Below, piece by piece: positions 12,291-50,458 of a stretch of 64,000 nt of DNA (positions within the stretch are counted from its first letter, which is position 1; every line of letters begins with the position of its first letter). The stretch is from Isurus oxyrinchus (lineage: Eukaryota). A program made the position numbers and the translations under genes. The notes below the pieces were generated by a model. It was not told the origin of the DNA, searched no databases, and saw only the letters and a program-made list of their open reading frames with translations. The stretch covers positions 496,001-560,000 of the forward strand of contig JANJGN010000323.1 in NCBI GenBank assembly GCA_026770705.1, in the 5' to 3' direction.

Positions 12291-12407
12291 AAGAAAGATG
12301 AGAAGGATCTGGAAATGAAATCTAACCGCGGAGTCAATCCTGATACAGATGATGATCTTTACGCAAACTGTGATTTTGCCAAGGATTCTGTTTATGGGAA
12401 TTTATAA
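12291..12407 (+). CDS. Gene A: probable terminal cytoplasmic exon (KKDEKDLEMKSNRGVNPDTDDDLYANCDFAKDSVYGNL*)
   Basis: ctattacag acceptor, 117 nt ending in TAA; two tyrosine motifs, C-terminal SVYGNL fits the ITIM consensus. Confidence 0.7.
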   Translation, partial: KKDEKDLEMKSNRGVNPDTDDDLYANCDFAKDSVYGNL

Positions 12408-13739: not shown

Positions 13740-15060
13740 TGACAGGAGGACATTCAGCCTCTTGATCCTGTTACACAGGAACAGGAGGAGGCCATTCAGC
13801 CCCCTCGAGCCTGTTACACAGGAACAGGAGGAGGCACATTCAGCCCCTCGAGCCTGTTACACAGGAACAGGAGGAGGCCCATTCAGCCCCTCGAGCCTGT
13901 TACACAGGAACAGGAGGAGGCCCATTCAGCCCCCTCGAGCCTGTTACACAGGAACAGGAAGAGGCCCATTCAGCCTCTTGATCCTGTTACACAGGAACAG
14001 CAGGAGGCCATTCAGCCCCCTCGAACCTGTTACACAGGAACAGGAGGAGGCCCATTCATTCCCTCGAGCCTGTTACACAGGAACAGGAGGAGGCCCATTC
14101 AGCCCCCTCGAGCTTGTTACACAGGAACAGGAGGAGGCCCATTCATTCCCTCAAGCCTGTTACACAGGAACAGGAGGAGGACCATTCAGCCACTCAAGCC
14201 TGTTACATGAGGACAGGAGAAAGCCCATCAGCCTCTTGAGCCTATTATACAGGAACAGGAAAAGGACATTCAGTCCCTCAACACCCTTCCACAGGAACAG
14301 GAGAGAGTCTCAGCTCCTCGAGCCTGTTACCCAGGAACAGGAAGAGGACATTCAGTCTCTCAACCCACTTACACAGGAATAGGAAACCCATTCAGTCCCT
14401 CGTGCCTGTTACACAGGAAAAGGAGGAGGCCCATTCTGTTCCCTCGAGCCTGTTACACAGGAACAGGAGGAGGCCCATTCTGTCCCCTTGAGCCTGTTAC
14501 ACAGGTACAGGAGACCCATTCAGCCTCCACAAGCTTGTTACACAGGAACATTAGGGGCTCCATTTAGCCCCATCAAGCCTGTTACACAGGAACAGGAGGA
14601 GGCCCATTCAGCCACTCAAGCCTGTTAGATAGGAACAGGTGGAGGCCCATTCAGCCCCATGATGCTGTTACACAGGAACAGGAGGAGGCCCATTCTGTCC
14701 CCTTGAATCTGTTACACAGGAACAGGAGGTGGCCCATTCAGACCATCTAACCTGTAACACAGGAAAACAAGGAGATCCATTCAGCCTCTTGAGCCTGTTA
14801 CACAGGAACAGGAGGAGGCCTATTCGGACACTCGAGCCTGTTACACAAGGACAGGGGGAGGGCATTCAGCACCTGGAGCCTGTTACACAGGAACAGGAGG
14901 AGGCACATTCAGCCCTGCCAAAGACTGTTACACAGGAACAGGGGGAGGCTTAATCAGCCACACAATCATGTCACACTGGAACAGGAGGAGGCCCATTTAG
15001 ACCCCTCGAGCCTGTTACACAGGAACAGGAGGAGGCCCATTCAAACCCTCGAGCTTGTTG
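13740..15060 (+). repeat. 43-44-bp minisatellite, ~30 copies (gagcctgttacacaggaacaggaggaggcccattcagcccctc)
   Basis: Period measured at 13808/13851/13894/13938. Confidence 0.95.
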
Positions 15061-15164
15061 CATATGAACAGTCGATGGCCCTTCAACCACATTATTGGCA
15101 CGCAAAGGGTTAACAGTTTTCTAACAGTGCGAGGCAAAGAGTTGCTTTCTCACTTGGTACCAAG

Positions 15165-15305: not shown

Positions 15306-15755
15306 GTAAGTAACGGAACGATTGGAATTCACTTCCACCACCAACACCGTCCTTTGTTGATGTTGTGACTTTATAAAGACAGATTCCAATGATTGATGCC
15401 TTTGAAAGATTTTTACTGATTATTGAATTCTGGGTGTGAGACTCAAGTCTGTTGTACAGAACATCTTTCTAGCTCAATGGATGAGGGAAGTGCAGGGACA
15501 TGAGATTTGGGATGTCCTGAGATAGTGAAAGGTGCTATAGAAATGCAAATCAATCATTGTTTGTCTTACTTAAAGACTTGTAACTCTCTGCAGAGCACCT
15601 ATCATCCCACAGAGAATCAAATTAGTCTGTGAAGACATTGTCTAAAAGCAGTTCTGATCTCTCGAGAGCTGTCGGACAAGAGGTGAGGTCTCATTAACTC
15701 CTTTCTCTTTCACAGCTTGAGAGTGAGAAGTGGATGGAATATCTGGGAGTGGACG

Positions 15756-15795
15756 ATGGTCGGGAAATCTTATTTCATCCTGTCACTTCTCCAAG
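15756..15795 (+). pseudogene. Gene B: leader exon (MVGKSYFILSLLQ)
   Basis: Acceptor at 15715, ATG, 40 coding nt, phase-1 donor gtaat; paralogous to 24501 and 46481. Confidence 0.75.
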
Positions 15796-16498
15796 GTAAT
15801 ATCATCATCAGCTCGGACAGATTTATGGTTAATATTCTTTGTAAAAGATCATTCTTATCTCTTTATCTCTGTAACCTCCTGCAACTCACCCAAACAACTT
15901 CCCAGATCTCTGTGTTACTCCAATTCCGGCCTCTTGACCATCCCCCGATTCCCATCACTCCAATACTGGCGGCCGGGCCTTCAGCTGCCTGGGGCCTGAG
16001 CTCTGGAATTCACTCCCTAAACCTCAGGGATGGAGGAGATCAGAGGGTTTCATTTTACTGAGAATCACCACGACGACATCACAGCTGCAGTCAGAATAGA
16101 CAGAGAGTCCAGCCCTCACACTTCCTGCACAGTTTCACCATAGCAACCACAATATGGAAATTTAAAAATACTGAAAGTTAAACTGAAGCTCAAACCAGTC
16201 AGTGTAGAGAGATGAGATGTTTACACAGTTTCCCTGTGTGTCTTGTAGACACTGTGTTGGATGGAAGACTGGCTTCACTAAACAGGGTCCTGAGGACCAT
16301 GAGCCAATGTAGAATGAACTTGTCCACTCCTGTGTCCAGGATTCTCTTCCCTCCATTGTGAAACCTTGGGGAGTTCCTTGTGTGTCCTGTAGATGGTCCA
16401 CACTGCAGCCACTGTGCCCCAGTGATGGAGAGGGTGGATATCGAGTCTAGTGGATCTACAAACTATCCAGAGTTAAATATTGATATTTCTCTCCCCAG

Positions 16499-16873
16499 TT
16501 GGACTGTCACAAGATTGAAAAGGCGACACTTCACGAGAGGTGACAGCGCAGGATGGTTCGTGTGTACAGATTCCATGTCATTACAGTTACTTATCAAATT
16601 TCATAGGGAGATCACGTGTCGGAATCTGCTTGAAAGGAATAGATGGGAACCCACAGCCGAAATGGTCTATAGCCTTTCATTCCGAGGGTCACAGTCACAG
16701 GGATCAAAGATTCCGCCATCGTACCCGGCTGTCTGGAGACCTGAAAGATGGCGACTGTTCCCTGATTATAAACAACATCAGACGGGAAGATGCAGGACCT
16801 TATTTTTTCAGAATAGAATTTGACAGCTGGAATAGATACAGCTACTATCCTGTAACCCAGCTTCACGTTTCTG
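16499..16873 (+). pseudogene. Gene B: Siglec-type V-set exon with a nonsense codon
   Basis: SCVQIPCHYSY...GDCSLIINNIRREDAGPYFFRIE; TGG>TGA at 16516-16518 relative to intact copies. Confidence 0.88.
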
Positions 16874-17731: not shown

Positions 17732-18028
17732 ATTTCACAGATAAACCCACGATATTCCCTGCTGAAATTATTGCAGGAAAGCATGTGGATGTAAGCTGCA
17801 CCTTCAACACAACGTGCAATGGAACAGCAGCGCCTGTCTTAACCTGGGAAACTCCCACTGACGTACCTGGATCAGTCTCAAACACTGTAACTCAGCATGG
17901 TGTCACTCTGACCTATATTTCTGTTCTGACCCTGATCCCATCACTCAAACACCACGGACACACTCTCAGCTGCAGAGTGAGATATCCATCTGTTTCATCG
18001 GAGCGGACCCTCGTACTAACTGTGCAAG
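17732..18028 (+). pseudogene. Gene B: Siglec-type second Ig (C2) exon, open frame
   Basis: DFTDKPTIFPAEIIAG..CTFNTTC..VLTW..HGHTLSCRV..LTVQ; AG/GT; extra Cys typical of the Siglec D1-D2 disulfide. Confidence 0.85.
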
Positions 18029-18351
18029 GTAAGTACATACACCTTTCATTCTACATCAGCACTCCGTCAGCGCTGACCCTCTGACAGTGCAGCCCGTTCT
18101 CAGTGTCCACATTCTCAGACCTCTCAAAGTGCTTCACAGTCGATTGAAGTTAATTGATCTTTATTTGATTATTGCTGAATAAAGAGACAAGCTGTCTAAA
18201 GTTTACATCTCGCACACACCATTCTCCATGGCAACACGTCCACCTATCAGAGACCACTTGCCAACCAATCAGCACTCTCTTCCCATTAAGTATAAATTGT
18301 GGTTCACTTTCTGTTGGTAATCCTGTGAACGGGCTTCTTGATTCCTGCCCT

Positions 18352-18503
18352 GACATCTTAATGTCCAAATGAACAGAACAAGTTCCAACAATGAGCTGTG
18401 GTTGGTGATTCCTCCCATTACATATCGGGACACTGGAGACTATCAGTGTGTGGCAGAGAATGAACATAGAGCAGTGGAGGGGTTCATAACCATCACTGTG
18501 GAA
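18352..18503 (+). pseudogene. Gene B: 3' remnant of a repeat C2 exon (5' half replaced by unrelated sequence)
   Basis: MNRTSSNNELWLVIPPITYRDTGDYQCVAENEH...ITVE|gtgagt; acceptor and first Cys missing. Confidence 0.8.
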
Positions 18504-20175
18504 CGTGAGTGTACACAGACATCAACATCTCTCTCAGATTCAAACATTGCACAAACACACACAAATATACAGAACTAAATAGACACGTGCAGACACACAT
18601 GTATGAGCAATTACAAAGACACACTCACGAACAAACACACTAGCACACACTCCCCTGTGGCTTACCTGAGTACTGCACTGGAGAGTTGGCCTGAATTCTG
18701 GGATTTGTGTTCCCAATCATGTTTATGGAAGAATATGGAAATTACAAAGTCTATTACAGACAGTCAGATGCATAGAGACACTCACAGATACTCTCTGCCT
18801 CTCCAACTCTCTCTCTCCCTTTAAGAAGCTTCCTGAAAGCTAACCCTTCGAACAATCACCGGCCCCAACTCCTCCTTATCTGATTCTGTGTGATTTTGTT
18901 TGTATATCTGAGAGTAAGAGAGAGGTGGAGAGGTTTAGTTAGAGAATTCCTGCTGGTGAAAATCTTACATCATTTACTCACCTTTCCAGTGCACATATTT
19001 CCCAGTATGTCCAAGGCCCCTGTTTATAATGATGACTGCCTATGTAAACGTCACGCTGTAGTTACAGTCTCCCACCAGTGGTGGCATTGTAGCACTTAAT
19101 CCTTGTGTTTCCCAGCTTTTCAAGCAACTCCACTTCCCAGTTTGCTACATAAGCTGTGAGTTCATCAGAATTAAAGTATTTCTCAAATGATAGATTTGAT
19201 AATTCATTTTATTGAAAACTTCCTCAGTGCCTCCCTGAAGGGTTTACACTCTCTGGGAAGCAGGAATAGGCTGGATGTTGGGGAGTTCATCTTTTCCCAG
19301 AGAGTAGGGATCCTTGAGAATGTGCTGTCAGTGGGTGTGGTAGTTCCTGTTTCTCTGTCGCCTTCAAGAGGGATCTGGAGTGGTTACTGACTGGGGGAGA
19401 GATCATGGAAGCGGAGAATGATACAGCACAGGAGGAGGCCATTCAGCCCATTGAGGCTGTGCCAGGTCTTTCAATGTTCTATCCAATCAGATCCACTAAC
19501 CACCACTCCACTTTACCCCATCTTCCTCCTTCAAGTGTTTATCCAATTTCCCTTTTGAAAGTTCCTATTGAATCTGCTTCCACCGCCCTTTCAGGCAGCA
19601 CCTTCCAGATCACAACAACTCGCTCTGTCAAAACAAATTCTCCTCATCTCCCCCTCCAGTTGGTCAATCTGTGTCCCTCTGGTTACCGACCCTCCTGCCC
19701 CTTAAATACATCGATACTGTTCACCTCAACCACTCCCTGTGGGAGTGAGTTCCACATTCTCCCCTCTCTCTGGGTAAAGATTGGAACTGTTTATTAAGCG
19801 GGGGGTGTAAGTCCGTGGGGGAGTCCATCTCGATTCTGCCCGATTCGCACACGCATCCGAGATGGATTTCCACCCTGCACTAAACGTTTCCAGAATTTTC
19901 TACAGCACAATCCTGTACACAGCGATGGAGAGAAACATTGGACAGGGAGTCCAACAGCACAATGATCCATTCTCACCAATGTTCCACGCTAAGGGGAAAG
20001 TTCCGATTGTCCACTCTTAGAGTGTTTACAATGAAAACATTCATTCCACATTGAATCCCAGTGGATGGGTCAATATTACAGCAAATGTTGCAGTGATATG
20101 AAGCTTGATTGTTCAGCCAGAGTGAGAGATTGAAAGCGGAGAGTCAGTGATGATTTCTTTCTGTGTGTTCTCTAG

Positions 20176-20315
20176 ACAGTGGAGGAGAGATTCTGCACGT
20201 GATCCTGATCCTGGGAATACGAGCTGTGATATTCCTTGTGGCTGTGGTTATCACTATCACTGGAGTCTGTGTCTGGGAGAGACAAACAGTGAAAGGAAGT
20301 CGACAGACTGTTTGA
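20176..20315 (+). pseudogene. Gene B: TM + short tail exon with an intramembrane Arg (SGGEILHVILILGIRAVIFLVAVVITITGVCVWERQTVKGSRQTV*)
   Basis: ttctctag acceptor, phase 1, hydrophobic stretch containing CGA (Arg), stop at 20313-20315, no tyrosine. Confidence 0.75.
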
Positions 20316-21020: not shown

Positions 21021-21739
21021 GCTTATTCTTTCCATCAGCACAAACAGCAATTTCCAAGCGGACTCCCATCAGCAGACAGAGTGCAATGAAACATCGGCAT
21101 GCCTGCTTCTTAATGTACGGAGAGAAACCTGGAACGAGAGATTCTCCTTCTTCTCCTCAGCAAGCTGAAACTTTTCCTTATACCTGGTGCTCCCCAGTCC
21201 TGCTGTGTGGACACATCATACCACGGCATTGTCTGGCTGTGTGCAGCCAACATGGTCGAATAGGAATGAACAGAAATGTGACATTGCTAAACTCTGTTCT
21301 CTGATTGGAATGAGCTTTCTGAATGCTGCACCTTTTTCATGCTGCGATAGATTGTAAGAAGCATTTGGGTTATGAATAAAATTACATTGATTAACACAAG
21401 TGATTAAAATGTTCAGGCTTTTCTGTAGATACTTATGGATTAAAATTCTTATTTTGCTGCCAGATTCTTGGCTCAAAGACATTATTTCATGTTGTCACTT
21501 TTTCCAGTCTGATGAATTCCTGTGGCCATCTGTATAATGGAAATTTCCAATGTAAACACGTCACATTGCAGCTGCACACTCCTGCCAGTGGTGGTGCCAT
21601 TCCAAAACTGTCTTGCTGCACCAACACAGTGAGAATTATTCTCGACATGTACATGATGTTGTTATTACACAGACATCAGGCGGAATCTTGGGCTGTGCCT
21701 AGAATGCACTTAGGACATTGCAGACCACGCACAGAACTG

Positions 21740-24050: not shown

Positions 24051-24500
24051 GTAAGTAACGGAACGATTGGAATTCACTTCCACCACCAACACCGTCCTTT
24101 GTTGATGTTGTGACTTTATAAAGACAGATTCCAATGATTGATGCCTTTGAAAGATTTCTACTGGTTATTGAGATCTGGGTGTGAGACTCAAGTCTGTTGT
24201 ACAGAACATCTTTCTAGCTCAAGGGATGAGGGAAGTGCAGAGACATGAGCTTTGGAACGTCTTGAGGTGGTGAAAGGTGCTATAGAAATGCAAATCCTTC
24301 AATGTTTTTCTTTCTAAAAGCCTTGTAACTCTCTGCAGAGCACCTATCATCCCACAGAGAATCAAATTAGTCTGTCAAGACATTGTCCAAAAACAGTTCT
24401 GATCTCTTGAGAGCTGTCGGACAAGAGGTGAGGTCTCATTAACTCCTTTCTCTTTCAGAGTTTGAGAGTCAGAAGCTTATGAATTATCTGGGAGTGGACA

Positions 24501-24540
24501 ATGATCGGGAAATCCTACTTCCTCCTGTCATTTCTCCAAG
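24501..24540 (+). pseudogene. Gene C: leader exon (MIGKSYFLLSFLQ)
   Basis: ATG, 40 nt, phase-1 donor gtaat. Confidence 0.75.
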
Positions 24541-26149
24541 GTAATAACATCATCAGCTCGGACAGGTTTATGGCTAATAGTCTTTGTAAAAAATCATTCT
24601 TATTGAGTGTGATTGGGAACCGATTCAGCAGTGAGCCAGTGTACAAACTCACACCAAGTCCCATTCACCCATCACCCCTGTGCTCACTGATATACACTGA
24701 CTCCCTGTCTGACAGCAGAATTGGAGGAGAGCAGAGATCTCAGAGGGTTTTAGGGTTGGAGGAGGTTACAGGGATCGGGAGTGTAGAGGGGGGATGGTGG
24801 GGTAAGAAATCGATGATGAGAATTTGAAATTTGAGTCATTGCTGGACTGGGAGCCAGTGTAGTTCAGCCAGTGACAGGGGAGCGATCGGCTGAATAGAGA
24901 ATCAGGAATACCAACTGGGGGATGAAGTCTATCCTGATGCTGGGACTCGGATAACAATGCCCTGAAATTTTGTGTCTTTTGCTGATTTTGTCAGAATTTC
25001 CCATGAAGACAACACAGCAGCTCCTAGAATAGACAGGCTGTTCAGTGTCACACTTCCTGCCCATTCTCACCATGCTAGATACTTCAATAAGGGAGCAAGA
25101 TAACTGAAAGAGAGAAGGAAGGTTAAGCTGTCTGTGTGTAAAACTGTCAAATATTCTGAGTTATCATGATTGTCTCTGATCTGCTGCAGAGTTTAAAGTT
25201 CTCAGAACATTAGCACTTTGCAGCTCAGAGAGAGACCATTGACTCACTGCCTGAAAGGCCGGTGGAAGCAGATTCAACAGGAACTTTCAGAAGGGGAACT
25301 AGATAAATACTTGAAGGGGACATTTTGCAGGGCTGTGGAGGAGAGAGCAGAGGTTAGAGTGGGATTAATTGGACAGATCTTTCAAAGACCCAGCACAGGC
25401 TCGATGGGCGAAATGGCATCCTTCTGTTCCGGATCATTCTACAATCTGATAAATTAAGCCCCACATCAGTAACTCTTCAGGCTCCTGCTGCAGGGATGGA
25501 TCTTTGAGAAGGACAGGGAACAAGAGGTTTCTGGTATCATTTTCATATTTCTTGACAATTACATAAGTGTATAGATCTGTTGAATATTTGAGTCTCTAAA
25601 GCGTAGAGGTAATCTGCTGTTATGTCGAGATCTTGTGGTGGCAAAATAGTCTGGAGGTTTCTTTAATTGCTCACATTGATCTGTGGGATTGTCATTCTTC
25701 GACGTTGTCCCTGGTTTCAATTGACATTACACCCTTGATGCAATTGAGGAGGCTTTAAACTAAGATGGCAGGGGATGGGATCCCGAGAGGAGGTTCAACA
25801 GAGAGAGATGCACAGCCAAAATTAGAAGAGAGAGCAAATGAACCTGGAAGGCATAGAAATTATTGGCCATTTAAGGCTCAAGATAGCGTGGCAAAGTTGG
25901 ATTGTATTAATTTTAATGCAAGGAGTCTGACAGACTTGCATTCTCCTGCAGGTGTAATGTTGCAGCTCCCTTCAAACTGCCAATATTGTTGAATCCTTCT
26001 GCATATTTCAATGTTATGTCATGAACTGAGTTGATGGGATAGTTTCTGAGACCGGGACAGACATAAATCCATTGGCTTTCGGCCGGACCGGACAATCATG
26101 GAAGTGGGTGGGGCCAGAAAATCCCACCCCTATGGGAACATTTTCAGTT

Positions 26150-27900
26150 TATTTGATGTGCCCAGAGAGATCAATAAAGACGACAATCCACAATTTATTG
26201 GCAAGCCACGTCAGGATATGTGTGAGAGGTGGAATATTGATCACCGTTCCTAGTCTCGTCGTGTACATCATCGCCATTTCTTGGTTTGTCAGTCACCACA
26301 TGTATATGTTCCTGATGGGATAGCGGATGGTCATTTTTATTGCTTGAAGGTTCCCCGTTGTGCAGGGTTTGTTTGGATCAGCGCACGGCTCTTTGTAGCT
26401 GCATCAGCCTTTGCTCTAGTGCCCTGCCGCTGTCAATGGCCCTTTCTGCCACAAGCCTTGCAGGATTGGTGGAAAGCTGGGCATTTCCTTGGTGCCTGCA
26501 GAAGGCCACACCTTCCACACGTCTCACTAGGTTTGGATGTTCTAGTGAGTGTGTCAACAATTGATGTTGTACTGAGGATCTGTAAGCTTCGTTGACCTGC
26601 GAGGATCACTTCGTATTTATGTCCATCCTTGAGTAGCTCTTCAATGCTATATGTTTTGGTCTTATCTAGCAGAGCTTTCTGGAAGGCTTCCATGGGAGTG
26701 GATGCGATCACCAACTCAACAACTGTGTCTGCAGGCTCTGTGTTTGAAATCACAGTGCGTACCCTTTTCTCTACATCGGCTGATGAAGTGGTCTATGGAT
26801 TGTGTAGGCTGATGAAATGACATAAACTCTAGATGATGAATATGGAGTTTAACGTGATTCTGAACCTGTCTTCCAATGTCGTCCATATCTATTGGGAATC
26901 CTTTCACTCTTCTGCTGTTAATCCTGATGTGTTCAGCCTGTGTAGACCTTCATTCCCAATCGCGAGGTGAATTTTTATGGGTGGCTCGTCTGGTTCAGTC
27001 ACACCTGAATCAGGAAACCAGAGCTCTGTACGCTGTTTAAACATTCTGAATTCAGATAGTCGGTCAGCTACATCCCAGTTCAAACTGGGGAATTTCGTGG
27101 ACATTCTGACAATATTCCTTTGACATTCCTTCTCCTGCAGGATCTGGGATGAGTGTCGCTTTAGCCCCTTTCGTGTGCTTTTCCAAAGCTCCGCCCACAA
27201 GGACAGGTTGTGGCAGGAACACACCACATAGTAATGGCGTCTTTGTTTTTTATTCAATTTGCTGTTCAGCAATCTCGAAACCGCCCATTATAATCACTAA
27301 CTTCTCTGGGCTGATTTTTATAATGGTTTTTGTGTGTTTGACTCTCCCTCGCTCACTATCGATCCAGCCCACACCCTGGTCACTCGCCTTCCCTGACTGA
27401 GCTAACCCGCTGCTGGTCCTGGCGATACACACTGTCCCACTCACTGACCTACAGGCCGTGTGCTGTAATCTCACCAAGAGGGATCCGTCTGCTCCCCAGC
27501 TCTTTACTTGAGCTCTTTCCCATCACTGTGTCTTCAAAGGATTCCTGAGCAGTCAGTACACTGCGATTTCAACCCTCTCTGATGCTGTGTCTCTGTTGTG
27601 GTCTGACCAAAGCGTCGAGGGTCGTCTCAAGTCATGTAGCTTGATCTAAGGCTGTTCACCACGTCATACCTGTACTGAATCTTGCTGCCAGAATGTTTGG
27701 CCACCGCTCATCACCATGTTGTGTTTTTATAATGATATAAAGGCACCAGCCACTGATACGGAATTGGGTAAACACATTTTGGGTTCATTTATTTAGAATG
27801 GGGACATGAGAACAGATATACAAGGATAGAAAGCTGGGAGACACCTACGGCCAAACTGTGTGAGCTGTGTTCTGCTCACAGACCAAAGTGAAACTTGGAC
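26150..27900 (-). mobile_element. Ty3/Gypsy-type LTR retrotransposon remnant (gag with paired zinc knuckles; probable PBS near 27700-27716)
   Basis: CGRCG...CPAFHQSCKACGRKGH knuckles; upstream gag-like peptide (SEFRMFKQRTELWF...IGNEG); minus-strand ...aaca-TGGTGATGAG junction; boundaries approximate. Confidence 0.7.
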
Positions 27901-30527
27901 TGGATGGTGTTATCATCCCAGCTGATGTTACTACTGGGCAAGTCAGATCCCAGGGTGGAACTCAGCTTGATAGGTCCTAACTTTTATTTTTCATTTAGGA
28001 ATGTGGAGTGCGGCTACTGAACAGAGTCACAGGAGTCATCTGATGAACATCTCACAAAAGAATAAAACATTTATTAAACTAGGAAAGACAAACTATATTA
28101 CATTCCTCCTTCACCCAGACCTATACATTTACAGATTCATAAGGATAACACACTACAATAACTATTTTATACTCTCATGTTCACACTAAGTACACAGTCG
28201 ATGTAAACCAATAGATGAACTCTGGTCACCACATTCTGAGACCAAGTGACAGAACCCACGTGAAACAAATGCTCTGGGTCCCTCCTCAACCTACTCCAGA
28301 CACTTGTTACACCGTGAGGCAACTGGTCTAACGAAACTGCATCTTTCTCATGAGAGTTTCCAATCTCTACTCACCAAGTGCTCTCTTTGGAATCTTCTCC
28401 AACATGACACTTTCACTCAGACACCTTCCACAAGGGTCCACTTTCACTATTTCAAACTCTCCTTCCCATGTTCCTGCGCCCTGGATCGCCATGTGCATTC
28501 AGCCTTCCTTCCACGCCCTGTCTCTCCAATGCTCAGCCGTGCCAATGGAACACCATGGCTTCACATGGCCAGAGTAAGAGACATCAACATTTGGCTGTCT
28601 CCTGTGATCTTCTGGCTTCTAATAAGCCTTTTTTGCTTTATGTCTGTGTCCTTTTGCTTTTTCTCTTTTAGCTTGGATCCCTCCTCTGCTCCTCAATCTT
28701 AACTTCACTTAACAGGGCCTTTTCCAGATTTGACTAGAAGGTCTTCTTGGCCCTTTCTCCTGTTCCACTCGATGGTTTTGGCTTCATCTTTACTTTGGGA
28801 CTGACTATCTGTCCCGCTCCTTTGCTGCTTCTCCTGGCAACTCCTTTCAACAGAACTGAATGTACTTTTCTGTTTTTCTCGGTCTCTGTGGGTCCTTCCC
28901 TCTGGATCACTGTTGCTAGGCAACAGCACAGTTTCTTACACCTTGTATTTGTTTTGACTTTCATTTAAGAGTCACCAAACATTATTAGAATGCTGGCTTC
29001 TGTAAAAATGAAACCAAAACTCAAGTCTCCCACTTTCCTAACACACAAATTCAGAAATCAAACTAAACTTGAACTTAAAGATAGACCTTATGCCTAACAC
29101 ACACAAATACACACAGAACTTCCTTAATCTATCCCCACTTCCTCAAAATCACATGACACACTTCCCCTCGAGTGATGCCATGCTGCTATCCCTGAAAGGC
29201 ATATTACAACAGTGTTATCACTTGGCAGGTGATGTGTGCCAGGCAGACCAAGTCCATGAGAGAAAGGTGGTCACATGATCATAATGATTTTGCAATTTGT
29301 ATTTATTATGAGATGTGTGCACTGAATTCAGAAGCAATAAGTCCACCAAGACCTTTAGAGATTTGAAAATTAAGCTAAAATACTTGTTCTCAAAATAAAA
29401 GATTTCAAGCACATACATAACTCTACAATTACCACTATAGTAATTCTTAAAATTCCAAATTAACCTGACTCCCAGTTACACTCCCTTTAAGGCAACGGTC
29501 CAAAAATAGACTTTATATTTAAAACAAACTCAGCAAGTTAACACAATACAATAGCAATACCCTGCACAGAGGAATTCCAAGTGGCTTTTCCCCAACTTCA
29601 GTTCTGTTGGATAGCAGGCTTGTGCACAAATGCTAGAGGTTTCATTAAGACTATATCACACACTCGTGTTAGATCTTACATGGCATTCTGACACATAGCC
29701 TTTTTCTCCCTGATAGATATATATTTCTCTCTTTGTAACATGAAAATTCTATTGTTCCATATGTTTTTGAAACTGTCTCTTCCTCATAACAAATTCTTTC
29801 GTGGTGCCCATATTGCCAGGAGCCTTTGAGAAAAATGAACACATTCCTTAGTCTTGCTTATCTGGCGAGTTGTAAACAAACTAAGATTCCTTTGAAATCC
29901 AACAACCCCTTCATTGATATAAAAATGCAAATTCTCTTCATACCTTCCATGCTAAGCAGCATCCATGTTTCCTCAATAGCATGTCAAGCACCTAGCTCCT
30001 TTTGATCATTTTAAACTTCCAATCTAATTAACTCCAAATGTACTTAAATCACATGCAGACCCATCATGCGTACCCCCATAAACCTACTTCACAATATACT
30101 ATAAAATATTATGAAAATTATTATACTTTCATCACAATAGGAACCACTGCCTTAGACACTGAGGATCTAGGACAGCTAGGCCAATTCATGATTCATGATG
30201 GTGATAATGGGGGAATTCTGAAGGCTCCTAATCCATTGTCCTACGTTGCAAATCAGCAGTGAACTCACTTCAATTAGTGCGTCTTGTAGACACTGTGTTG
30301 GGTGGAAGACTGGCTTCACTAAACAGGTTCCTGAGGGCCATGAGCCAATGTAGAATGAACTTGTCCACTCCTGTGTCCAGGATACTCTTCATTGTGTTGT
30401 GAAACCTTGGGGCACTCATTGTGAGTCCAGACTGCAGCCACTGTGCCCCAGTGAAGGAGGGGGTGGATATCGAGTCTAGTGGATTGACAAAACATTCAGA
30501 GTTAAATATTGATATTTCTCTCCCTAG

Positions 30528-30902
30528 CTGGACTACCACAAGAGTGGAAAGGTGACACTCCACGAGAGGTGACAGCGCAGGAAGGTTCGTGTGTACAGAT
30601 TCCATGTCATTACAGCTACCCATCATATTTAGTATCGAGATCACCTGTCAGAATCTGGTAGATGAGAAGGAATTGGGAAACATGGAATGAATGGTCTATA
30701 GCCTTTCACTCCAAGGATCATAATCGCAAGTTACCACGGTTCCTCCATCGGACTCAGCTGTCTGGAGACCTGAAAGATGGTGACTGTTCCCTGATTATAA
30801 ACAACATCAGACAGGAAGATGAAGGATATTATTTTTTCAGAATAGAATTTGACAACAGGAATAGATACAACGACCGTCCTGAAACCCAGCTTCAGGTTTC
30901 TG
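30528..30902 (+). pseudogene. Gene C: V-set exon 1 with in-frame TAG
   Basis: Siglec V motifs incl. YFFRIE; TAG at 30659-30661. Confidence 0.88.
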
Positions 30903-31119
30903 GTAAGTGCTGTGTTATAATTACTCAACAATTCACATCCAACACTCAATGGGAAATAATAGTGTTTGATTTGCTTGTTTTTTGGCCGTGTTAACCAGCG
31001 TCACTATTTTTAATGATCTGTCTATTTCTGCTCCCAGATCCATGAGCTTATTGTGTGTGATTGAATCCACATCATAGCTGTAATGTAAACCGAGCTGAGG
31101 GGTAATGACACCTCCCCCC

Positions 31120-32780
31120 TGAGTGAAGTGCCTCCTCCCCACTACACCTTCCAACCCTCACACTGTCCGTGTAAACCCCATCCCATCTCCAGCCTCTCTT
31201 TCCTCTCCAAAGTCCTTGTACGTGTTTCCATCTCCCGAATCCGTTCCCATCTTTCCCGGAACTCGATGTTTGAATCCCTCCAATCAGGTTCCCACCCCAG
31301 CCACTGTGCTGAAACATCTCTTATCAAGGTCACAAATGGCATCCTGTGTGACTGTGACAAAGGTCAACTTTCCCTCCTCGTCCTTCTCGATCTGTCTGCA
31401 GCCTTTGACACGCTCGACCACACCATCCTCCTCCAACACCTCTCCACTGTCGTCCAGCTGGGTGGGACTGCTCTCCCCTGGCTCCATTCTTATCCATCTC
31501 ATCGTAGCCAGAGAATCACTTGCAATGGCTTTGCAGCATCATCTGAACAGTGTTAGTTTTCACCTGTCCACTGAGGATCCCCAGCTCTACCTCACCACCA
31601 CCTCTCTCGACTCCTCCACTGCTGCTAAATTATCAGGCTGCTTATCCGACATCCAGTACTGGATGGGCAGAAATTCCCTCCAATTAAATATTGGAAAGAC
31701 TGAAGCCATTGTCTTCATTCCCCGCTCCAAACTCTGTTCCCTCGCTACCAACTCCATTCCTCTCCCTGGCAGCTCTCTGAGATTGAAGCCAATCTGTTCA
31801 CAGCTTTGTTGTCCCATTTGATCCTGAGATGAGCTTCTGGCCTCATATCTGCGCCCTCACTAACACCGTCTATTTCCACCTGCGTAACATCGCACGACAT
31901 CACCCTGTCTCAGCTCATCTGCTGCTGAAACCCTCATCCACGCCTTCATTACCTCCAGACTCGACTGTTCCAACACACGCTCTACACTCCATAAACTTGA
32001 GGCCATCGAAAACTGCTGACCACGTCCTTACTCACACCAAGTCCCATTCCCTTATCACCCGCTCTGCTCGATGACCGAGACTGGCTCCTGGTCAAGCAAA
32101 GTCTCAATGTCACAATTTTCATCTTTGTTTCCTCACTATCCCTGTAATCTCCTCGTCCTCCTCCAGTACCTACAACCATCCCATTCTCTGTAACCTCTTC
32201 AAGCTTCTGCTGCTTCCCTATATCTGTAAAATCATCCTGCCCAACAAACCTACCAATCTCTGCAACCTCCTCCAGTCACTACAACCCTCCCTACCTCTGC
32301 AAACTCCTCCATACCCTACACTCTCCCAATCTCTCTTAAATTTTCCAGCCCCTACAACCGTCCCTATCTCTGTAACTCCTCCAATCACTACAACCCTCCC
32401 TATCTCTGTAACCTCCTCCAGCCCCTCCAACCCTCTGAGGTCTCTGCTCTCCTCCAATTCCAGCCTCTTGACCATCCCCCGATCCCATCGCTGCAACATC
32501 GGCGGCCGTGCCTTCAGCTGCCTGGGACCCAAGCTCTGTAATACCCTGCCTCAACCCCTCTCCGTCCCTCTCTCTCACTCTCTCTATCTCTCTATCTCTA
32601 TCTCTCTCTCTCTCACTATCCATTTCATCCCTCTTTGAAGATTCTCCATAACACCGACCTCTTCTGGCCAGCTGTCGCTAATATCTCCACATGTGTCTGG
32701 GTGACATACTTTGTTTTATGATGTTCCTGTGTAGCACCTTGAGGTGATTTGTCATGTTAAAGTTGTTGTGTAAATATAAC
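31120..32780 (+). mobile_element. L2 LINE fragment (RT and 3' region)
   Basis: LQSG...AETSLIKVTN...LVLLDLSAAFDTLDH; WMGRNSLQLNIGKTE. Confidence 0.85.
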
Positions 32781-33334
32781 TTGTTGCCCTTTGACCCTCG
32801 ACCCCAGATCGAGTCTTATTTTTGAGGGAATGTACAACCTCCTTAGATTTCTGACCAAAGTGTCATTTGATTATTTTTATTGAGCGAATGCCAAGCCCCG
32901 ATACCGAGCGAGAGCCTCCTCATTTGCTGAGTTTAAGGTGATGAGTCAGCCCCTTAGTCCGTAGAGGGGATTCTCCTCGGTAATGTGCAGCCTTGTTTGT
33001 GTCTCTCCACAAGCGCATGAGGGGTTTGTACAGAGGCTGCAGCGCTGGAGGGGGTCTGCACAGGGGTCCTGGCCTGTCCTGAGCCGGTTTTAGCAAGGAC
33101 CACTCTGGCCTTGGCAGCTGAAAGCCAGCCATTGGACAGACGGGGCCTGTCACAAGGAGCCTGTTAGTCACTCCCCCCCCGTGTCTCCTGTGCTCGGATC
33201 CAGACCATGTTGGCTGGTGGATCTGGCTCAGGAAGGGTCCTCCCCATGGGACCCCCAGATGGAAGGTGGGTCGAGCGGGTCATTCACTTGCATGTTTTTT
33301 CTGCAGCTTTAATATTTTAAGAAGGTAAGAATGT

Positions 33335-34100
33335 AGGAACATAAGAAATAGGGACAGGAGCAGGCCATTCAGCCCCTCGAGCCTGCTCTCACTGATCTAG
33401 TTGCGGCCTTAACTCCATTTTCCTGCCTGTCCCCCAAACCCTTGACTCCCTTGTCGATCAAAAACCTGCCTCACTCAGCCTTGAGTCTATTCAATGGCCC
33501 AGCCTCCACTGCTCTCTGGGGAAGAGAATTCCACAGGCTAGCGCCCCTCTGAGAGAGGAAATTCCTCCTCATCTCAGTCTTAAATGGGAGAGCACTCATT
33601 CCGAAACTGTGCTCCCCGGTTCTAGATTCCCCCACGAGGGGGAAACATCCTCCCAAAATCCACCCTGTCAAGCCCCCTCGGAATCGGATATGTTTCAATA
33701 AGGTCACCCCTCATTCTTCTAAACTCCAATGGATACAGGCCCAACCTGCTCAACATTTCCTCACAGGACAAACCCTTTAATCCCAGGAATCAGCCCAGTG
33801 AAGCTTCTCTGAACTGCCTCCAATGCAGAGTCTATCCCTCCCTAAGTAAGGAGACCAGAACTGTACACACTGCTCCTGATACAATCTCAACCTGTGCAGC
33901 TGTTGCAAGACTTCCCTCCTTTTATACTCCATCCCATTGCAATGAAGGCCAACATTCCACTTGCCTTCCTCATTCCGTGGTGTTCCTGAATGCTGACTTT
34001 CTGTGATTCATGTACCAGGACACCCAGATCCCTCTGTACTGCATTCTGCAGCCTCTCTCCATTTAAATAATATCCTGTTTTTCTATTCTTCCTGCCAATA
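33335..34100 (-). mobile_element. CR1 LINE 3' fragment
   Basis: YYLNGERLQ..VQRDLGVLVHESQK; EMRRNFLSQR..LWNSLP; CR1-like tail at 33335-33390. Confidence 0.85.
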
Positions 34101-34219
34101 TAATTTGTTGCCATTCTCCTCAGTATTGACCATCCCCCCAATTCAGCCTCATCTGTAAATATCGGGTTCAGTGGATCCACAAACCTTCCAGAGTTAAATA
34201 TTGAGTTTTCTCTCCCCAG

Positions 34220-34596
34220 TTGGACTGTCACAAGAGTGGAAAGGTGACACTCCACGAGAGGTGACAGCGCAGGAAGGTTCGTGTGTACAGATCCATGTCA
34301 TTACAGTTACCCATCACATTTGGTAAAGAAAACACATGTCGGAATCTGGTAAATGAGGAGGTACATACAGAACAAATGGTCTAAATGGTCTATAGCCTTT
34401 CACTCCAAGGATCACAGTCACGAGTTACCATGGTTCCACCATCGGACCCGGCTATCTGGAGACCTGAAAGATGGCGACTGTTCCCTGATTATAAACAACA
34501 TCAGACGGGAAGATGCAGGACCTTATTTTTTCAGAATAGAATTTGACAATGGTCCGAGCCATAACTATTACCCTGTAACCCAGCTTCACGTTTCTG
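34220..34596 (+). pseudogene. Gene C: V-set exon 2 (1-bp deletion, TAA, dead donor)
   Basis: cagatcc vs cagattcc near 34292; TAA at 34350-34352; donor gtaag changed to ataag. Confidence 0.88.
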
Positions 34597-35409
34597 ATAA
34601 GTGCTGTGTTATAATTACTCAACAATTCACATCCAACACTCAATGGGAAATAACACAAACTCTGACGTTTACATATTAACACAAAACACAGCTTATTATA
34701 ACATACTGTCTGATTCTCAATATCCTGGTGAGAGCTTCCAGTTCAATCTGAAAGCAACCTCTAATACTCACTTTAATATCAATGATTAAATGTATTGACC
34801 GTGTACATCAATGTTATCAGGTTATCCACTCCCATCGATCTCCATAACCCTGTATGACAGTCTTACATTTCGACTAAAGATAGATTCACATTTCTATAGC
34901 GCCTTTCAACACCTCTGTACATCGCAAATGGATTCACAACCAATGAAATAATTCTTGAAATGAAGACCTTGTTGTAATCTGGGAAACACAATCGCCAATT
35001 TGTTCACAGGAATCTCCCAGAAAAGGTGATGTGATCAATAACCTGATCATCTGCTTTAGATGCCGGTTCAGTTATTGGTTCAAATGGATTCTCTCCTGCT
35101 GGGGACAGGATAAAATTTAAATCTGGCAGATTTCAGAGAAAGTAACAAGCCAGTGTGTCAGGAACTGTGAGCTGCTCCCCCACCCTCACCTGGGATTGTC
35201 AATTCAATTGTCTCAAATTGGAAGTGAATTCATCTGAGAGACAGAAACACCACTAAGTCTGAAAATAGGAAATTCTCTCCTGATCATTGTAATCTCTCAG
35301 TTCTGATATCATCCTTGTAAAAGTGCTTTCTCTTGTGGGACTGTGATTTCTATTTGAACTGGTGCTTCACATTATATTTCTCTAAAAGGATCCATTCTCT
35401 GTCTGTTAG

Positions 35410-35704
35410 ATTTCACAGATAAACCCACGATATTCCCTGCTGAAATTATTGCAGGAAAGCGTGTGGATGTAAGCTGCACCTTCAACACAACGTGCAATGG
35501 AACAGGAGCACCTGTCTTAACCTGGGACACTCCCACTGACGTACCTGGATCAGTCTCAAACACTGTAACTCAGCATGGTGTCACTCTGACCTATACTTCT
35601 GTTCTGACCCTGATCCCATCACTCAAACACCATGGACACAGTCTCAGCTGCAGAGTGAGATATCCATCTGTTTCATTGGAGCGGACCCTCGTACTAACTG
35701 TGCA
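35410..35704 (+). pseudogene. Gene C: second Ig (C2) exon, donor deleted
   Basis: Matches 52864-53160 but a short deletion removes ag|gtaag... Confidence 0.85.
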
Positions 35705-35877
35705 TTCTATATTAGCGGTATTAGGATATAATGTGCAGAGCAAGATCCCACAAACATCACTTGAAGACAAAACTTGTCCTTTTCTAATGAGTGATATTGA
35801 GCAGGGAGAGCTCTTCCTTGTATTGACCCTTGGGATTGTTTATCCCAACCTGATAGGTCAGAGGGGGCCCAGGTTGT

Positions 35878-35944
35878 GACTATCAGTGTGTGGCAGAGAA
35901 TGAACATGGAGCAGTGGAGGGGTTCATAACCATCACTGTGGAAT
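35878..35944 (+). pseudogene. Gene C: 3' remnant of a repeat C2 exon
   Basis: DYQCVAENEHGAVEGFITITVE|gtgagt only. Confidence 0.8.
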
Positions 35945-35959
35945 GTGAGTGTGGAGATA

Positions 35960-36272
35960 CATTTGTTTGGTTGTTGTCTCCGTGGTCTCCGTGGAGCCAT
36001 TGGGATCGTGTTGTTTTTAATCCAGTTTTCTTCAATCCTCGCTCAGTCCACGTTATCCACACATCCAATTTTTCCTCTCCCTTTCTGTTTTTGCTCTCAG
36101 TTTCTCCTTCAATGGTTGTCAGGACAAGGCTGTCAGGTCTTCGTTTCCAATCTCCGTACTTGACGAACTTTCTCTCTCTAACTGTCCTGAACAACCCTTT
36201 TAATTGCTGAACGTCTCCTCTTGATCTAAGCCACTCATTGGTCTTTCTGTACATCCAGCTGATTCTGAGCAT
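35960..36272 (-). mobile_element. RTE-like LINE 3' fragment (also at 63840-64000)
   Basis: MLRISWMYRKTNEW...IEG..RKG peptide. Confidence 0.55.
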
Positions 36273-37330
36273 CTGGCAGCATCTGTGGAGAGAAAGACAG
36301 GGTTAGCGTTTGGAGTCCGTAAGACTCCTCTTCAGAGCTAAAGGGAAGTAGACATGTGGTGAAATATATCCTGTCTAAGGGGGGGCGATGGGACAGGTGG
36401 AGCTGGATAGAAAACCAGCGATAGGTGGAGGCAATGGAGAGATTGTGGAAGATGTCATAAACACAAGGTCAAAGGGTTGTTAACAGTGGTGGTATTGGAT
36501 AAAGGAGGTGCTAATGGTGACATTAAGCAGAGTGTGATAATGGGGGACCAGGGTAAGCACTCTGGAAAGAGACAGATGGCCCTCGTGGGGGTGTGGCAGG
36601 GGGAGGGGACGGTGGAGGGAATAAAGATCGAAAATAGACTAAAATCTGTGGATAAAACAATCAATAAAAATGGAAATGAATTTCAAATAATAGTAATAAA
36701 AATAAGTGGAAAACAGTTAACAAATAAAACAATTAAAATGAATATATAAAAAAAGGGTTCAAAAAGCAGTGAAGATCGAGGAGAGAGTTCATGATCTGAA
36801 ATTGTTGAACTCAATATTCAGTCGGGAAGGCTGTAAAGTGCCAGGTCGGAAGATGAGGTGTTGTTCCTCCAGTTTGCGTTGGGCTTCACTGGAACAATGC
36901 AGCAGGCCAAGGACGGACATGTGGGCATGAGAGCAGGGTGGGGTGTTAAAATGGCAAGCGACAGGGAGGTCTGGGTCATGCTTGTGGACAGACCGAAGGT
37001 GTTCATCAGAGCGATCACCCAGTCTGTGTTTGGTGTCTCCAATGAAGAGGAAACCACATTGGGAGCAGCGAATGCAGTAGATTAAATTGAAGGAAGTCTG
37101 CATGAAGCGCTGCTTCACCTGGAAGGAGTGTTTGGGTCATTGGACAGTGAGGGGGGAGGAAGTAAAGGGGCAGGTGTTGCACCTTCTGCAAATACATGGG
37201 AAGATGTCATCGGAGAGGGTTGAGGTGCTAGGGGTGATGGAGGAGTGGACCAGGGTGTCCTGGAGGGAATGATCCCTGTGGAATGCCAACGGGGTGGGGG
37301 TGAAGGGAAGATGCTTTTGGTGGTGGTCAG
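36272..37330 (-). mobile_element. Penelope-like element fragment (GIY-YIG endonuclease)
   Basis: LIYCIRCSQCGFLFIGDTKHRLGDR..EH; homologous to 59332-60078. Confidence 0.85.
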
Positions 37331-37479
37331 ATTTTGTCCGAAGGAGGTGAGAAATGAGGGAGGGAATTCCAGAGGTTAGGATCCAGGCAGCTGAAGGCAC
37401 GGCTGCCAATGGTGGAGCGATAGGAATCGGGGGAATGTCAAGAAGCTGGAATTGGAGGTGCACAGAGATCTCGGAGGGT

Positions 37480-37885
37480 TGTAGAGGCTGGAGGAGTTTA
37501 CAGAGATAAGGAAGGTTGAAGGGGCTGGAGGAGGTTACAGAGATAGGGACGGTTGAATCGGCTGGATGAGGTTACAGAGATAAGGAAGGTTGTAGGGGCT
37601 GGAGGAGGTTACAGAGATAGGGAGGGTTGTAAGGGCTGGATGAGGTTACAGAGATAGGGAGGGTTGAAGGGGCTGGAGGAGGTTACAGAGATAGGGAGGG
37701 TTGAAGGTTCTGGAGGAGTTTACAGAGATAGGGAGGGTTGAAGGGGCTGGAGGAGGTTACTGAGATAGGGAGGGTTGTAGGGGCTGGAGGAGGTTACAGA
37801 GATAGAGAGGGTTGAAGGGGCTGGAGGAGGTTACAGAGATAGGGAGGGTTGAAGGGTCTGAAGGAGGTATCAGAGATAGGGAGGG
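37480..37885 (+). repeat. 37-bp minisatellite (ggagggttgaaggggctggaggaggttacagagatag) within an L2-like fragment
   Basis: ~10 copies; reverse complement of the motif in the L2 3' region near 32390-32430. Confidence 0.9.
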
Positions 37886-38195
37886 GGTAAGGAGGGATTT
37901 GAAACAATGTGAATTTTAAAATTGTGGCATTGTCGGACCGGGAGCCAGTGTACCTCAGTGACCAACAGGGAGTGATGTGTGAACGGGACTCGGTGTGAGT
38001 TAGGACATGGGGACAGCAGAGTTTGGGATGAGCTGATGTTTACGGAGAGTGGAAGATGGGAGGTCGGGCAGGAGAGTGTTGGGATAGTTGAGTGCAGAGG
38101 TAACAAAGGCAGGAATGAGTGTTTCAGTGTTAAGATTCTATCTTACGCTCTAACTTTGCTATGACGTTGTCTTATTGTTATCCTTCCCTCCTCAG

Positions 38196-38489
38196 ATAAG
38201 CCGGAGATTTCCCAGCAGTCGGAGTGCACTCGGAGATCAGAGGGGGTCACCTGCATCTGTGTGGCCACCTCCAACCCACCCGGAGACCTCACCTGGCACC
38301 TGCCCAGTGCCAACATCAGTGGTAACCAAACACACGGAGGTTTTGTGTCGTGGCAGGTCAGAGATGGGCATCTGGTGACTGGTTCCCTCACCCTGATGAG
38401 ACCCCAGGATGAGGGGGGAGTGATTGCATCCTGCTCGGTTCAAAACCCACATGGGGAAGCCATGTTCAAGGTGTATGTGTGGGTCAAAG
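38196..38489 (+). CDS. Gene C: membrane-proximal Ig exon of MAG-D5/Siglec-5-D4 type (intact frame)
   Basis: YKPEISQQSECTRRSEGVTCICVATSNPPGDLTW...SCSVQNPHG; ctcag/gtgag; 294 nt phase 1-1. Confidence 0.85.
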
Positions 38490-38844
38490 GTGAGAGACTC
38501 GCTCAGGATCGATCTCCACTCAGCTGGATTGATCCCTAAACTCGAGAATTCCCTCCCTCAACCTCTCCACCTCTCTCTCTACCTCCTCTAAAATGCTCTT
38601 TAGAACTTACCCATTTGACCAAGCTTTGAATCACCTGATCTCATGTGACAATGGCAACACTTGGTCAAATTGGAGCCAGGCCATTCAGGGGGTGATGTCA
38701 GGAAGCACTTCTTCACACAAAGGGGAGTGGAAATCTGGAACCCTCTCCCCCAGATAAGCTGCTTCATTGGGTGCAAGACAGAAAGCTTTGACAAAATGTC
38801 CTTTCTCAGCAATACTCAGGTTCTCCTCCCAAACGATAAAATAT

Positions 38845-39170
38845 TTTATATAAACATTTCATAGATTACATTGATAAATATTATATATAAATGTTACATA
38901 GATTACATTGATAAAAATTATATATAAATGTTTCACAGTTTAAATGGATAAATATATATAAATGTTACATATATTACATTGGGCAATATTATATATAAAT
39001 GTTACATGGATTAAATCGAGAAACATTATATATAAATATTACAGAGATTAAATGGATAAAAATTATATATAAATGTTACATAGATTATATTGATAAATAT
39101 TATAAATTTATGCTGTAGGGATCACATTGATAAATATTATATATAAATGTTACATGGATTAAATCGAAAA
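38845..39170 (+). repeat. AT-rich ~37-bp minisatellite (atagattacattgataaatattatatataaatgttac)
   Basis: ~8 degenerate copies. Confidence 0.85.
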
Positions 39171-39698
39171 ATAAGACTTGCGTTGATAAAATACTTAGGA
39201 ATTCCCAAAACTCTCGATAACCAGTAAAGCAGTTTCAAAGTGAGCTCACTGTCATCATGTAGGAAACGCAACAGCTGATTTGTGCACAGCAAGATCTCAC
39301 AAACAACAGCATGAAATTGAGGTGATAATTGATTATTTTAGGGAGGTTAGTTGATACATATATATAGAAATTACATATATAATATGGGTCACTAATTATC
39401 TTAAGGGAGGGAAACCTGTCCATTTTAACAGGTCTGGGTGTATATGTGACTCCAGTCTCAAACACCAACATGGTTAACTCTTACCTGCCCTCTGAACTGG
39501 TCTCCCAGTTTGGGACAAACCAGTGGTTCAGGAGGAAGACCCCCCACCACCTTCTCAAGGGGAAACTAGGGATGGACAATAAATGTCAGCATTGCCCGAG
39601 AATGAGTATTTAAACATTGAGTGAGTGTATCGCTTCTCGAGATACATCGGAGCATCATTGTAAACCTGTAGTGCAGTAATTAATGGCTGTTTTTACAG

Positions 39699-39795
39699 GT
39701 AGAGACTCCAGTAAATGGACAGTAGGATTGTTCACGGCTGGGATCATGTTGAGTGTTTTCCTGGCTGGAATCTTCATCTTCATCTGTGTGAGAAA
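39699..39795 (+). CDS. Gene C: transmembrane exon (GRDSSKWTVGLFTAGIMLSVFLAGIFIFICVRK)
   Basis: ttttacag/gtaagt, 97 nt, uncharged TM. Confidence 0.88.
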
Positions 39796-41831: not shown

Positions 41832-42080
41832 GGTAAACAGAACGTGCTGATTACTGAGCCCCGGAACACAACCAGAGACACAACTAGCGAGGGGGAGACC
41901 CCAGTTCCCCGGGGTCTCTCTGAAGGTCCAGTGGGAGGTGGTGCTGGACATGGGAACCCTGACAATCCCGCCGAGCTTCTCTACGCCAATCCCCAAGTCT
42001 TCAGGGTGCCCAGTGGTGATGGGTCTGTCCACAGGGAAGAGGAGACGGAATACGCACAGATCAGATTCAAGCGAAACTGA
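41832..42080 (+). CDS. Gene C: terminal cytoplasmic exon with ITIM-like LLYANP and ITSM-like TEYAQI
   Basis: ctctgtag acceptor, 249 nt to TGA; ...ELLYANPQ...EETEYAQIRFKRN* parallels CD33-related Siglec tails (TEYSEI). Confidence 0.88.
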   Translation, partial: GKQNVLITEPRNTTRDTTSEGETPVPRGLSEGPVGGGAGHGNPDNPAELLYANPQVFRVPSGDGSVHREEETEYAQIRFKRN

Positions 42081-50089: not shown

Positions 50090-50458
50090 TTGGACTGTCA
50101 CAAGAGTGGAAAGGTGACACTCCACGAGAGGTGACAGCTCATGAAAGCTCGTGTGTACAGATTCCATGTCATTACAGTTATCCATCACATTTGGAAAACC
50201 AACCGCGAGGTGGAGTCTGGTTTAATAATGAGAAACAGATTCCCTGGGCTCCCATTGCCTTTCACTCCAAGGATCACAGTCACGAGTTACCACGGTTCCG
50301 CCATCGGACCCGGCTGTCTGGAGACCTGAAAGATGGCGACTGTTCCCTGATTATAAACAACATCAGACGGGAAGATGCAGGACCTTATTATTTCAGAATA
50401 GAATTTGACAATGGTCCGAGCCATAACTATTACCCTGAAACCCAGCTTCACGTTTCTG
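50090..50458 (+). CDS. Gene D: Siglec-type V-set exon 1, intact
   Basis: 369 nt phase 1-1; QEWKG, SCVQIPCHYSYP, GDCSL, YYFRIE (essential Arg position). Confidence 0.92.

Follow-up and report, generated by a model that had tools for sequence, protein, structure and literature searches.

Organization of the locus

The stretch of Isurus oxyrinchus DNA analysed here (the window, 64,000 nucleotides of contig JANJGN010000323.1) carries a broken Siglec-type gene on its forward strand, downstream of a related gene with an uncharged transmembrane (TM) exon. The broken gene opens with an intact leader exon at 15717..15795, with the ATG at 15756 (MVGKSYFILSLLQ) and a joint from 15793 to 16497. It continues with a V-set exon of Siglec type (16499..16873), an intact C2-set exon with an extra Cys (17732..18028), the 3' half of a repeat Ig exon (18352..18504) and a terminal TM exon (20176..20315). 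The first AATAAA downstream, a candidate poly(A) signal, lies at 21375..21380. A 43-bp minisatellite of 31 copies (13744-15071) separates the last exon of the upstream gene from the leader and has been copied together with the cassette.

The V-set exon is the broken part. The TGA that an earlier note on this DNA had placed in it is present at 16516-16518, and a second change at 16627-16629 replaces the core C-strand Trp by Cys, so that the window copy has no functional open frame through V. Apart from the TGA the V reading frame is open, and leader, C2, TM exon and splice sites are intact. The same note had counted the repeat exon as broken as well. Only its 3' half is indeed present, but this is no lesion specific to the window copy, because the half exon is an intronic relic common to 74 of the 83 genes of this type examined, intact ones included, and is skipped in splicing by the joint from 18026 to 20174; the other 9 of the 83 keep a full repeat exon before the TM exon.

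The terminal exon encodes a short stalk, an Arg-bearing TM helix and a short Tyr-less tail. Its frame reads (D)SGGEILHVILILGIRAVIFLVAVVITITGVCVWERQTVKGSRQTV*, in phase 1, with an AG acceptor directly 5' of 20176. The apolar run is 29 residues long, including His and Arg, with 10 apolar or His residues N-terminal of the Arg, whose CGA codon lies at 20220..20222; the tail counts 12 residues after Trp, and the stop codon ends at 20315. The exon proposed by the earlier note, intact and with an intramembrane Arg and a 12-residue tail, is therefore real, and its activating-type anatomy also stands, given the conserved basic TM residue and the short tail without ITIM. Genes ending in this exon are called Arg-TM genes below, and those with an uncharged TM exon neutral-TM genes.

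Hydrophobicity by itself is weak evidence of a TM exon. The mean Kyte-Doolittle value of 2.56 exceeds a threshold (at least 2.3 over 29 residues) that was reached in none of 20 Markov shuffles, and the real window holds 23 such segments, probably mostly simple repeats. The exon is not a chance reading because GT..AG joints connect it to the C2 exon and homologues were matched in protein searches with E-values from 4e-15 to 5e-7. The possibility that the short tail reflects a decayed splice donor of the window copy was rejected, as paralogues and the proteins of Carcharodon and Scyliorhinus have the same tail and stop.

Siglec-type ectodomain

The family assignment of the broken V exon was made through the intact paralogous V exon at 50092 in the window. 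This exon scored above the cut-off for the Pfam families V-set and Ig_CD22, and C2-set_2 was also matched; the intact paralogue thus shows the Siglec order of an N-terminal V-set followed by C2-set domains. Used as query, it found MAG, Siglec-5/7/8 and CD33 as best PDB matches (E about 1e-13). The Arg on the F strand that is essential in Siglecs appears in the motif YFFR when aligned with MAG and Siglec-5, is retained in the window copy at 16810; the Arg-TM genes have it in 74 of 80 intact V exons. Siglecs have a characteristic Cys pattern, with a B-E disulfide, no F-strand Cys and an extra Cys each in V and C2. Aligned to MAG, the shark sequences display this pattern at the sequence level, with Cys 21, 26 and 86 in V and Cys 22, 28 and 80 in C2. 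The family may bind sialic acid.

Splicing and conservation of the terminal exon

Contigs of presumed RNA runs contain the GT..AG joints leader to V, V to C2 and C2 to TM, with the caveat that their RNA origin is a guess and that near-identical paralogues are indistinguishable in them; runs with small word shares were excluded. On the window, the C2-to-TM joint from 18026 to 20174, which skips the half exon, was matched in three of four runs (X1, X2 and X7), and on the intact paralogue L142 in X3, X4 and X6. Overall it was found in six of eight runs, counted as three studies and two organisms because X1-X4 represent one sample, and a single contig of 559 nt covers V, C2 and TM. Run X19 contained none of the three joints. 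The suspicion that the TM exon might never be spliced to Ig exons is thereby removed for the family; the joints prove splicing of the family and not of the window copy. At position 16531, the window base, a marker of the copies sharing the TGA, differs from all compared contigs of X1, X2 and X5, which is no evidence of silence because contigs drop rare variants. In X5 (organism B), sequence matching the repeat exon was spliced to the Arg-TM exon. Together with the full repeat exon kept in some genes, this likely represents an ancestral three-domain form.

The Arg is widely conserved, as the earlier reading had required of paralogues. It is invariant as R15 in the alignment of shark homologues, and the motif GIRA occurs in all nine proteins (P0001-P0009) from three other genera, Carcharodon, Scyliorhinus and Chiloscyllium. 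These proteins, whose names ("Siglec-12/13-like", "CD33-like", "CD22-like") come from automatic NCBI annotation, share the terminal exon with 73-93% identity over the aligned exon, with Carcharodon closest (89-93% in the TM exon). Basic residues are scarce at the cytoplasmic end of the TM segment, and EGQ replaces ERQ in several orthologues. In the Isurus genome, 98 of 100 listed copies have CGA at the Arg codon and two have CAA; among same-length copies on contig C52 it is kept in 63 of 65. A CpG-decay test on these 65 copies did not discriminate, since the Arg CpG codon had changed in 2/65 and a CGA codon of the tail likewise in 2/65. There is no sign of special protection of the Arg inside the genome, where the copies have not existed long enough for selection to become visible.

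Size of the family and state of its members

Exact-pattern searches of the genome revealed 217 copies of the Arg-TM exon (29-nt pattern, Arg codon left open), 297 neutral-TM exons and 538 V exons, counts that may include haplotype duplicates, as the FcR-gamma exon, too, occurs on two contigs; reversed-pattern controls of all three gave no match. A search with 201 bp returned 229 candidates, of which 40 were scored, each at about 100% identity, and the ITIM-ending exon had 139 candidates. Twelve contigs of known length carrying the Arg-TM exon add up to 13.2 Mb, and on C52 alone 66 Arg-TM and 92 neutral-TM matches are located. The Arg-TM copies are real duplicates, because their flanks differ by 2-9% and their lesions vary.

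The suggested existence of intact paralogues was borne out by a survey of C52, which covered positions 1-400 kb as a whole and 10 kb around 56 other listed copies, and so 66 of the 217 genes on one contig. Intact in all exons seen were 22 of the 66 (11 complete and 11 whose leader falls outside the 10 kb), while 42 were broken or missing an exon and 2 were intact with Arg replaced by Gln. The latter two (L100 and L133), otherwise intact, are predicted to be adaptor-less decoys. The common architecture is leader, one to four V exons, C2, Arg-bearing TM and short tail. Tandem V exons, spaced by about 2.3 kb and up to about seven in succession by pattern matches, some of them identical, were seen in L097, L117, C52:1871617-1886931 and the gene at C52:104349; they may encode multi-V ectodomains or allow alternative splicing.

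Expansion of the family could have proceeded mostly by neutral segmental duplication, most Arg-TM copies, intact or broken, being passengers. We regard this as rather unlikely. The 42 broken genes among 66 on C52 and the amplification of a dead clade to at least 17-24 copies speak for it, as does the TM exon being barely less variable than its intron (1.2% against 2.2%, in a sample chosen by its TM pattern). Against it, exon and Arg have been retained across three shark genera and spliced forms appear in several runs; the passenger explanation moreover bears on copy number and not on the existence of function. Comparison of exon and flank diversity was discarded as a test of selection, because the search pattern biases the sample and the 3' value of 12% probably has a structural cause.

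Neutral-TM relatives and pairing

Neutral-TM genes are interspersed with the Arg-TM genes. In the upstream gene, the uncharged TM exon (10196..10292, forward strand) follows eight intact repeat exons and one deleted copy, with leader, V and C2 located just before the window. Its predicted cytoplasmic exons on the same strand fall within 10828..12407 (10828-10849, 11649-11753 and 12291-12407; splicing inferred from phases) and would encode a tail with PVYENC, DLYANC and a terminal SVYGNL of ITIM consensus. A second kind of uncharged TM exon lies at 39699..39795, also on the forward strand, in a gene that is broken in the window; TEYAQI closes a candidate tail exon near 41850-42075, and the predicted tail of this type reads LLYANI...TEYAQI. 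Both this tail and SVYGNL fit the ITIM consensus quoted in the accessible parts of PMC7226832 and PMC13358205.

Other features of these genes were noted in the window. The gene at 24462-39795 has both V exons and the C2 donor broken and the neutral TM exon intact, with a candidate ITIM LLYANP in place of LLYANI. The neutral-TM genes at 233-8932 and 53708-63826 contain at least eight repeat Ig exons, 96-99% alike, which make up a stalk of variable length; among these exons, the one at 58038 has a stop and that at 233-325 an internal deletion.

Out of 16 sampled neutral-TM V exons, 12 have an Arg-TM V exon at 96% identity or more. The two labels interleave on the V tree, with 13 changes against a shuffled mean of 15.0, as expected from exchange of ectodomains. 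Near-identical V exons are thus present on activating and ITIM-type genes within one cluster, and from the sequences the family is presumed to work as paired receptors. The window copy itself differs. Its V exon belongs to a clade of 24 rows with support 100, all from Arg-TM genes, in a tree of 137 rows that includes the 16 sampled neutral-TM V exons, and the V of the neighbouring inhibitory-type gene is only 86.7% identical. The role of activating partner that had been suggested for this gene would apply to the paired family, but no neutral-TM counterpart of the window copy's own V exists among the 16 sampled.

Putative adaptor of the intact members

The terminal exon is best understood as the intact anchor exon of a broken copy, and we consider it likely that intact family members activate cells by pairing of the Arg with adaptor Asp, most likely that of FcR-gamma. 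The buried TM Arg would associate with the Asp residues of an adaptor dimer, and ITAM/Syk signalling would follow downstream of the adaptor.

The chemistry of Arg and its register somewhat favour FcR-gamma over DAP12. In the available text of PMC1440944, Fc-gamma partners carry the Arg near the outer TM end, at position 3 against position 6 for the Asp, and a central Lys distinguishes type I partners of DAP12 from these outer-Arg receptors (PMC1440944 and PMC13107469, both as far as accessible). Measured from the first charged cytosolic residue, the shark Arg is at a distance of 19 residues and the FcR-gamma Asp at 16, which places the Arg three residues farther out than the Asp, as in known FcR-gamma-coupled receptors. 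The register is uncertain because the hydrophobic stretch has 29 residues: the best 19-residue helix window puts the Arg at position 2, while the best 21- and 23-residue windows put it at position 8, mid-membrane. A complex prediction for the Arg-TM exon with a shark FcR-gamma TM dimer, run without alignments, gave a score of 0.09 and a mark of 0.34 and counts neither for nor against this pairing.

FcR-gamma-like and CD3-zeta-like TM exons were both found in the genome, the FcR-gamma exon on two contigs (L052/L053), whereas a 2014 survey, in its accessible part, reports no FcR-gamma in sharks (PMC4016189). In most of the shark FcR-gamma proteins (P0010-P0016) the tail is extended and contains two additional YxxI/L motifs, possibly a second ITAM.

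With family and activating role unchanged, the adaptor could instead be DAP12 or DAP10, as for primate Siglec-14/16, an assignment that appears somewhat unlikely. Siglec-14 combines a TM Arg with DAP12, which counts in favour of this adaptor, and so does the mid-membrane Arg of the longer helix windows. Human activating Siglecs use DAP12 according to the available portions of PMC6288428 and PMC13233462, and the partially accessible literature names it for all characterised activating Siglecs. However, replacement of Lys by Arg lowered KIR-DAP12 assembly to 15% (PMC1440944, available text). For DAP10, a genome search of the family, insensitive to short split exons, gave no credible match, its one hit being implausible (E 0.4, internal stop). 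FcR-gamma remains the preferred adaptor of the predicted activating receptors.

Inactivation and duplication of the window copy

An exact search of the genome located the identical TGA context in 17 copies on 10 contigs, so the stop is older than the duplications. The TGA and the core Trp-to-Cys change were inherited together in the five copies read, and the TGA copies read match the window at 95-98% identity across kilobases, in a stretch that takes in the end of the upstream gene. Within the V clade, 23 of the 24 members are broken, by several different lesions, with L142 as the intact exception. Death before duplication is the simplest reading of the TGA clade: the gene would have died first and then been multiplied by segmental duplication in a cassette with the end of its upstream neighbour. 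The birth-and-death turnover proposed earlier is upheld, and the window copy is just one of many dead duplicates in a genuine paired Siglec-like family of very large size.

Continued use of the window copy, either through a V-less product (leader-C2-TM) or by donation of V sequence in gene conversion, seems improbable. Skipping of V would keep the frame because all exons are in phase 1, several paralogues without V have leader, C2 and TM (e.g., L104 and L136), and L119 and L142 resemble V mosaics with a converted 3' end. On the other hand, no leader-to-C2 joint was among the joints listed, and the V-less copies carry other lesions as well. The analogy with SIGLEC14/16 null alleles is not supported for the window copy, and a polymorphic locus at which the TGA is a null allele and other individuals of the population carry a functional one, as with SIGLEC16P (an allele at a single locus in the accessible text of PMC5701461), is very improbable, since the otherwise open V frame, the intact remaining exons and splice sites and one intact clade member are outweighed by a TGA present in many copies, linked to the Trp-to-Cys change, and by the varied lesions of nearly the whole clade.

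Relation to known receptor systems

Paired activating and inhibitory Siglecs have been described mainly from primates, and humans have 15 Siglecs. Activating types, their pairing and the loss of activating genes are established for Siglecs; the shark system stands apart by its lineage and scale, by the adaptor predicted for it and by its portable TM exon. The likeness to primate Siglec-5/14 and Siglec-11/16 extends to V-set and C2 domains, a basic TM residue with short tail versus an ITIM tail, V exons nearly identical between signalling types and frequent inactivation of the activating genes (PMC6288428 and PMC5701461, accessible parts). The shark system differs in having hundreds of genes versus two pairs, tandem V exons (one to four or more), duplicated dead copies versus allelic nulls, and predicted FcR-gamma versus DAP12.

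The FcR-gamma-coupled Fc-alpha-RI/CD89 and NKp46 are likewise type I receptors with a TM Arg, N-terminal in their case, and a short signal-less tail (PMC1440944 and PMC13107469, in part); unlike them, the shark proteins have a Siglec-like ectodomain, not a C2-only one of LRC type, and a longer hydrophobic run. Siglec-15 and teleost Siglecs provide an activating fish Siglec with a conserved basic TM residue, which in Siglec-15 is a Lys used with DAP10/12 (PMC7226832, available text). The same text states that fish genomes lack ITIM-bearing CD33-related Siglecs, whereas the shark has tails of ITIM consensus. A literature search largely without subscription journals or supplements found no description of a shark Siglec expansion; the accessible part of a whale shark paper holds one generic mention of Siglecs.

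We tentatively propose, while holding it somewhat doubtful as a whole, that a system of paired Siglec receptors in sharks may comprise several hundred genes spread across more than 13 Mb, in which an ancient portable Arg-TM exon turns CD33/MAG-like and CD22-like ectodomains into FcR-gamma-coupled receptors, in the role of the LILR/KIR-type clusters of bony vertebrates. With at least 158 of the TM exons on one contig and more than 500 in the assembly, paired design and birth-and-death turnover would reach back to the oldest lineage of jawed vertebrates and be much larger in scale there, and FcR-gamma coupling would constitute a wiring unlike that of mammalian activating Siglecs.

In Chiloscyllium (P0006-P0009) the Arg-TM exon also ends a CD22-like ectodomain with multiple C2 domains, an arrangement absent from the 83 genes examined in the Isurus genome. 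A neutral-TM match (C34:15134583) and a V match (C25:36073487) lie outside the cluster contigs, on large scaffolds.
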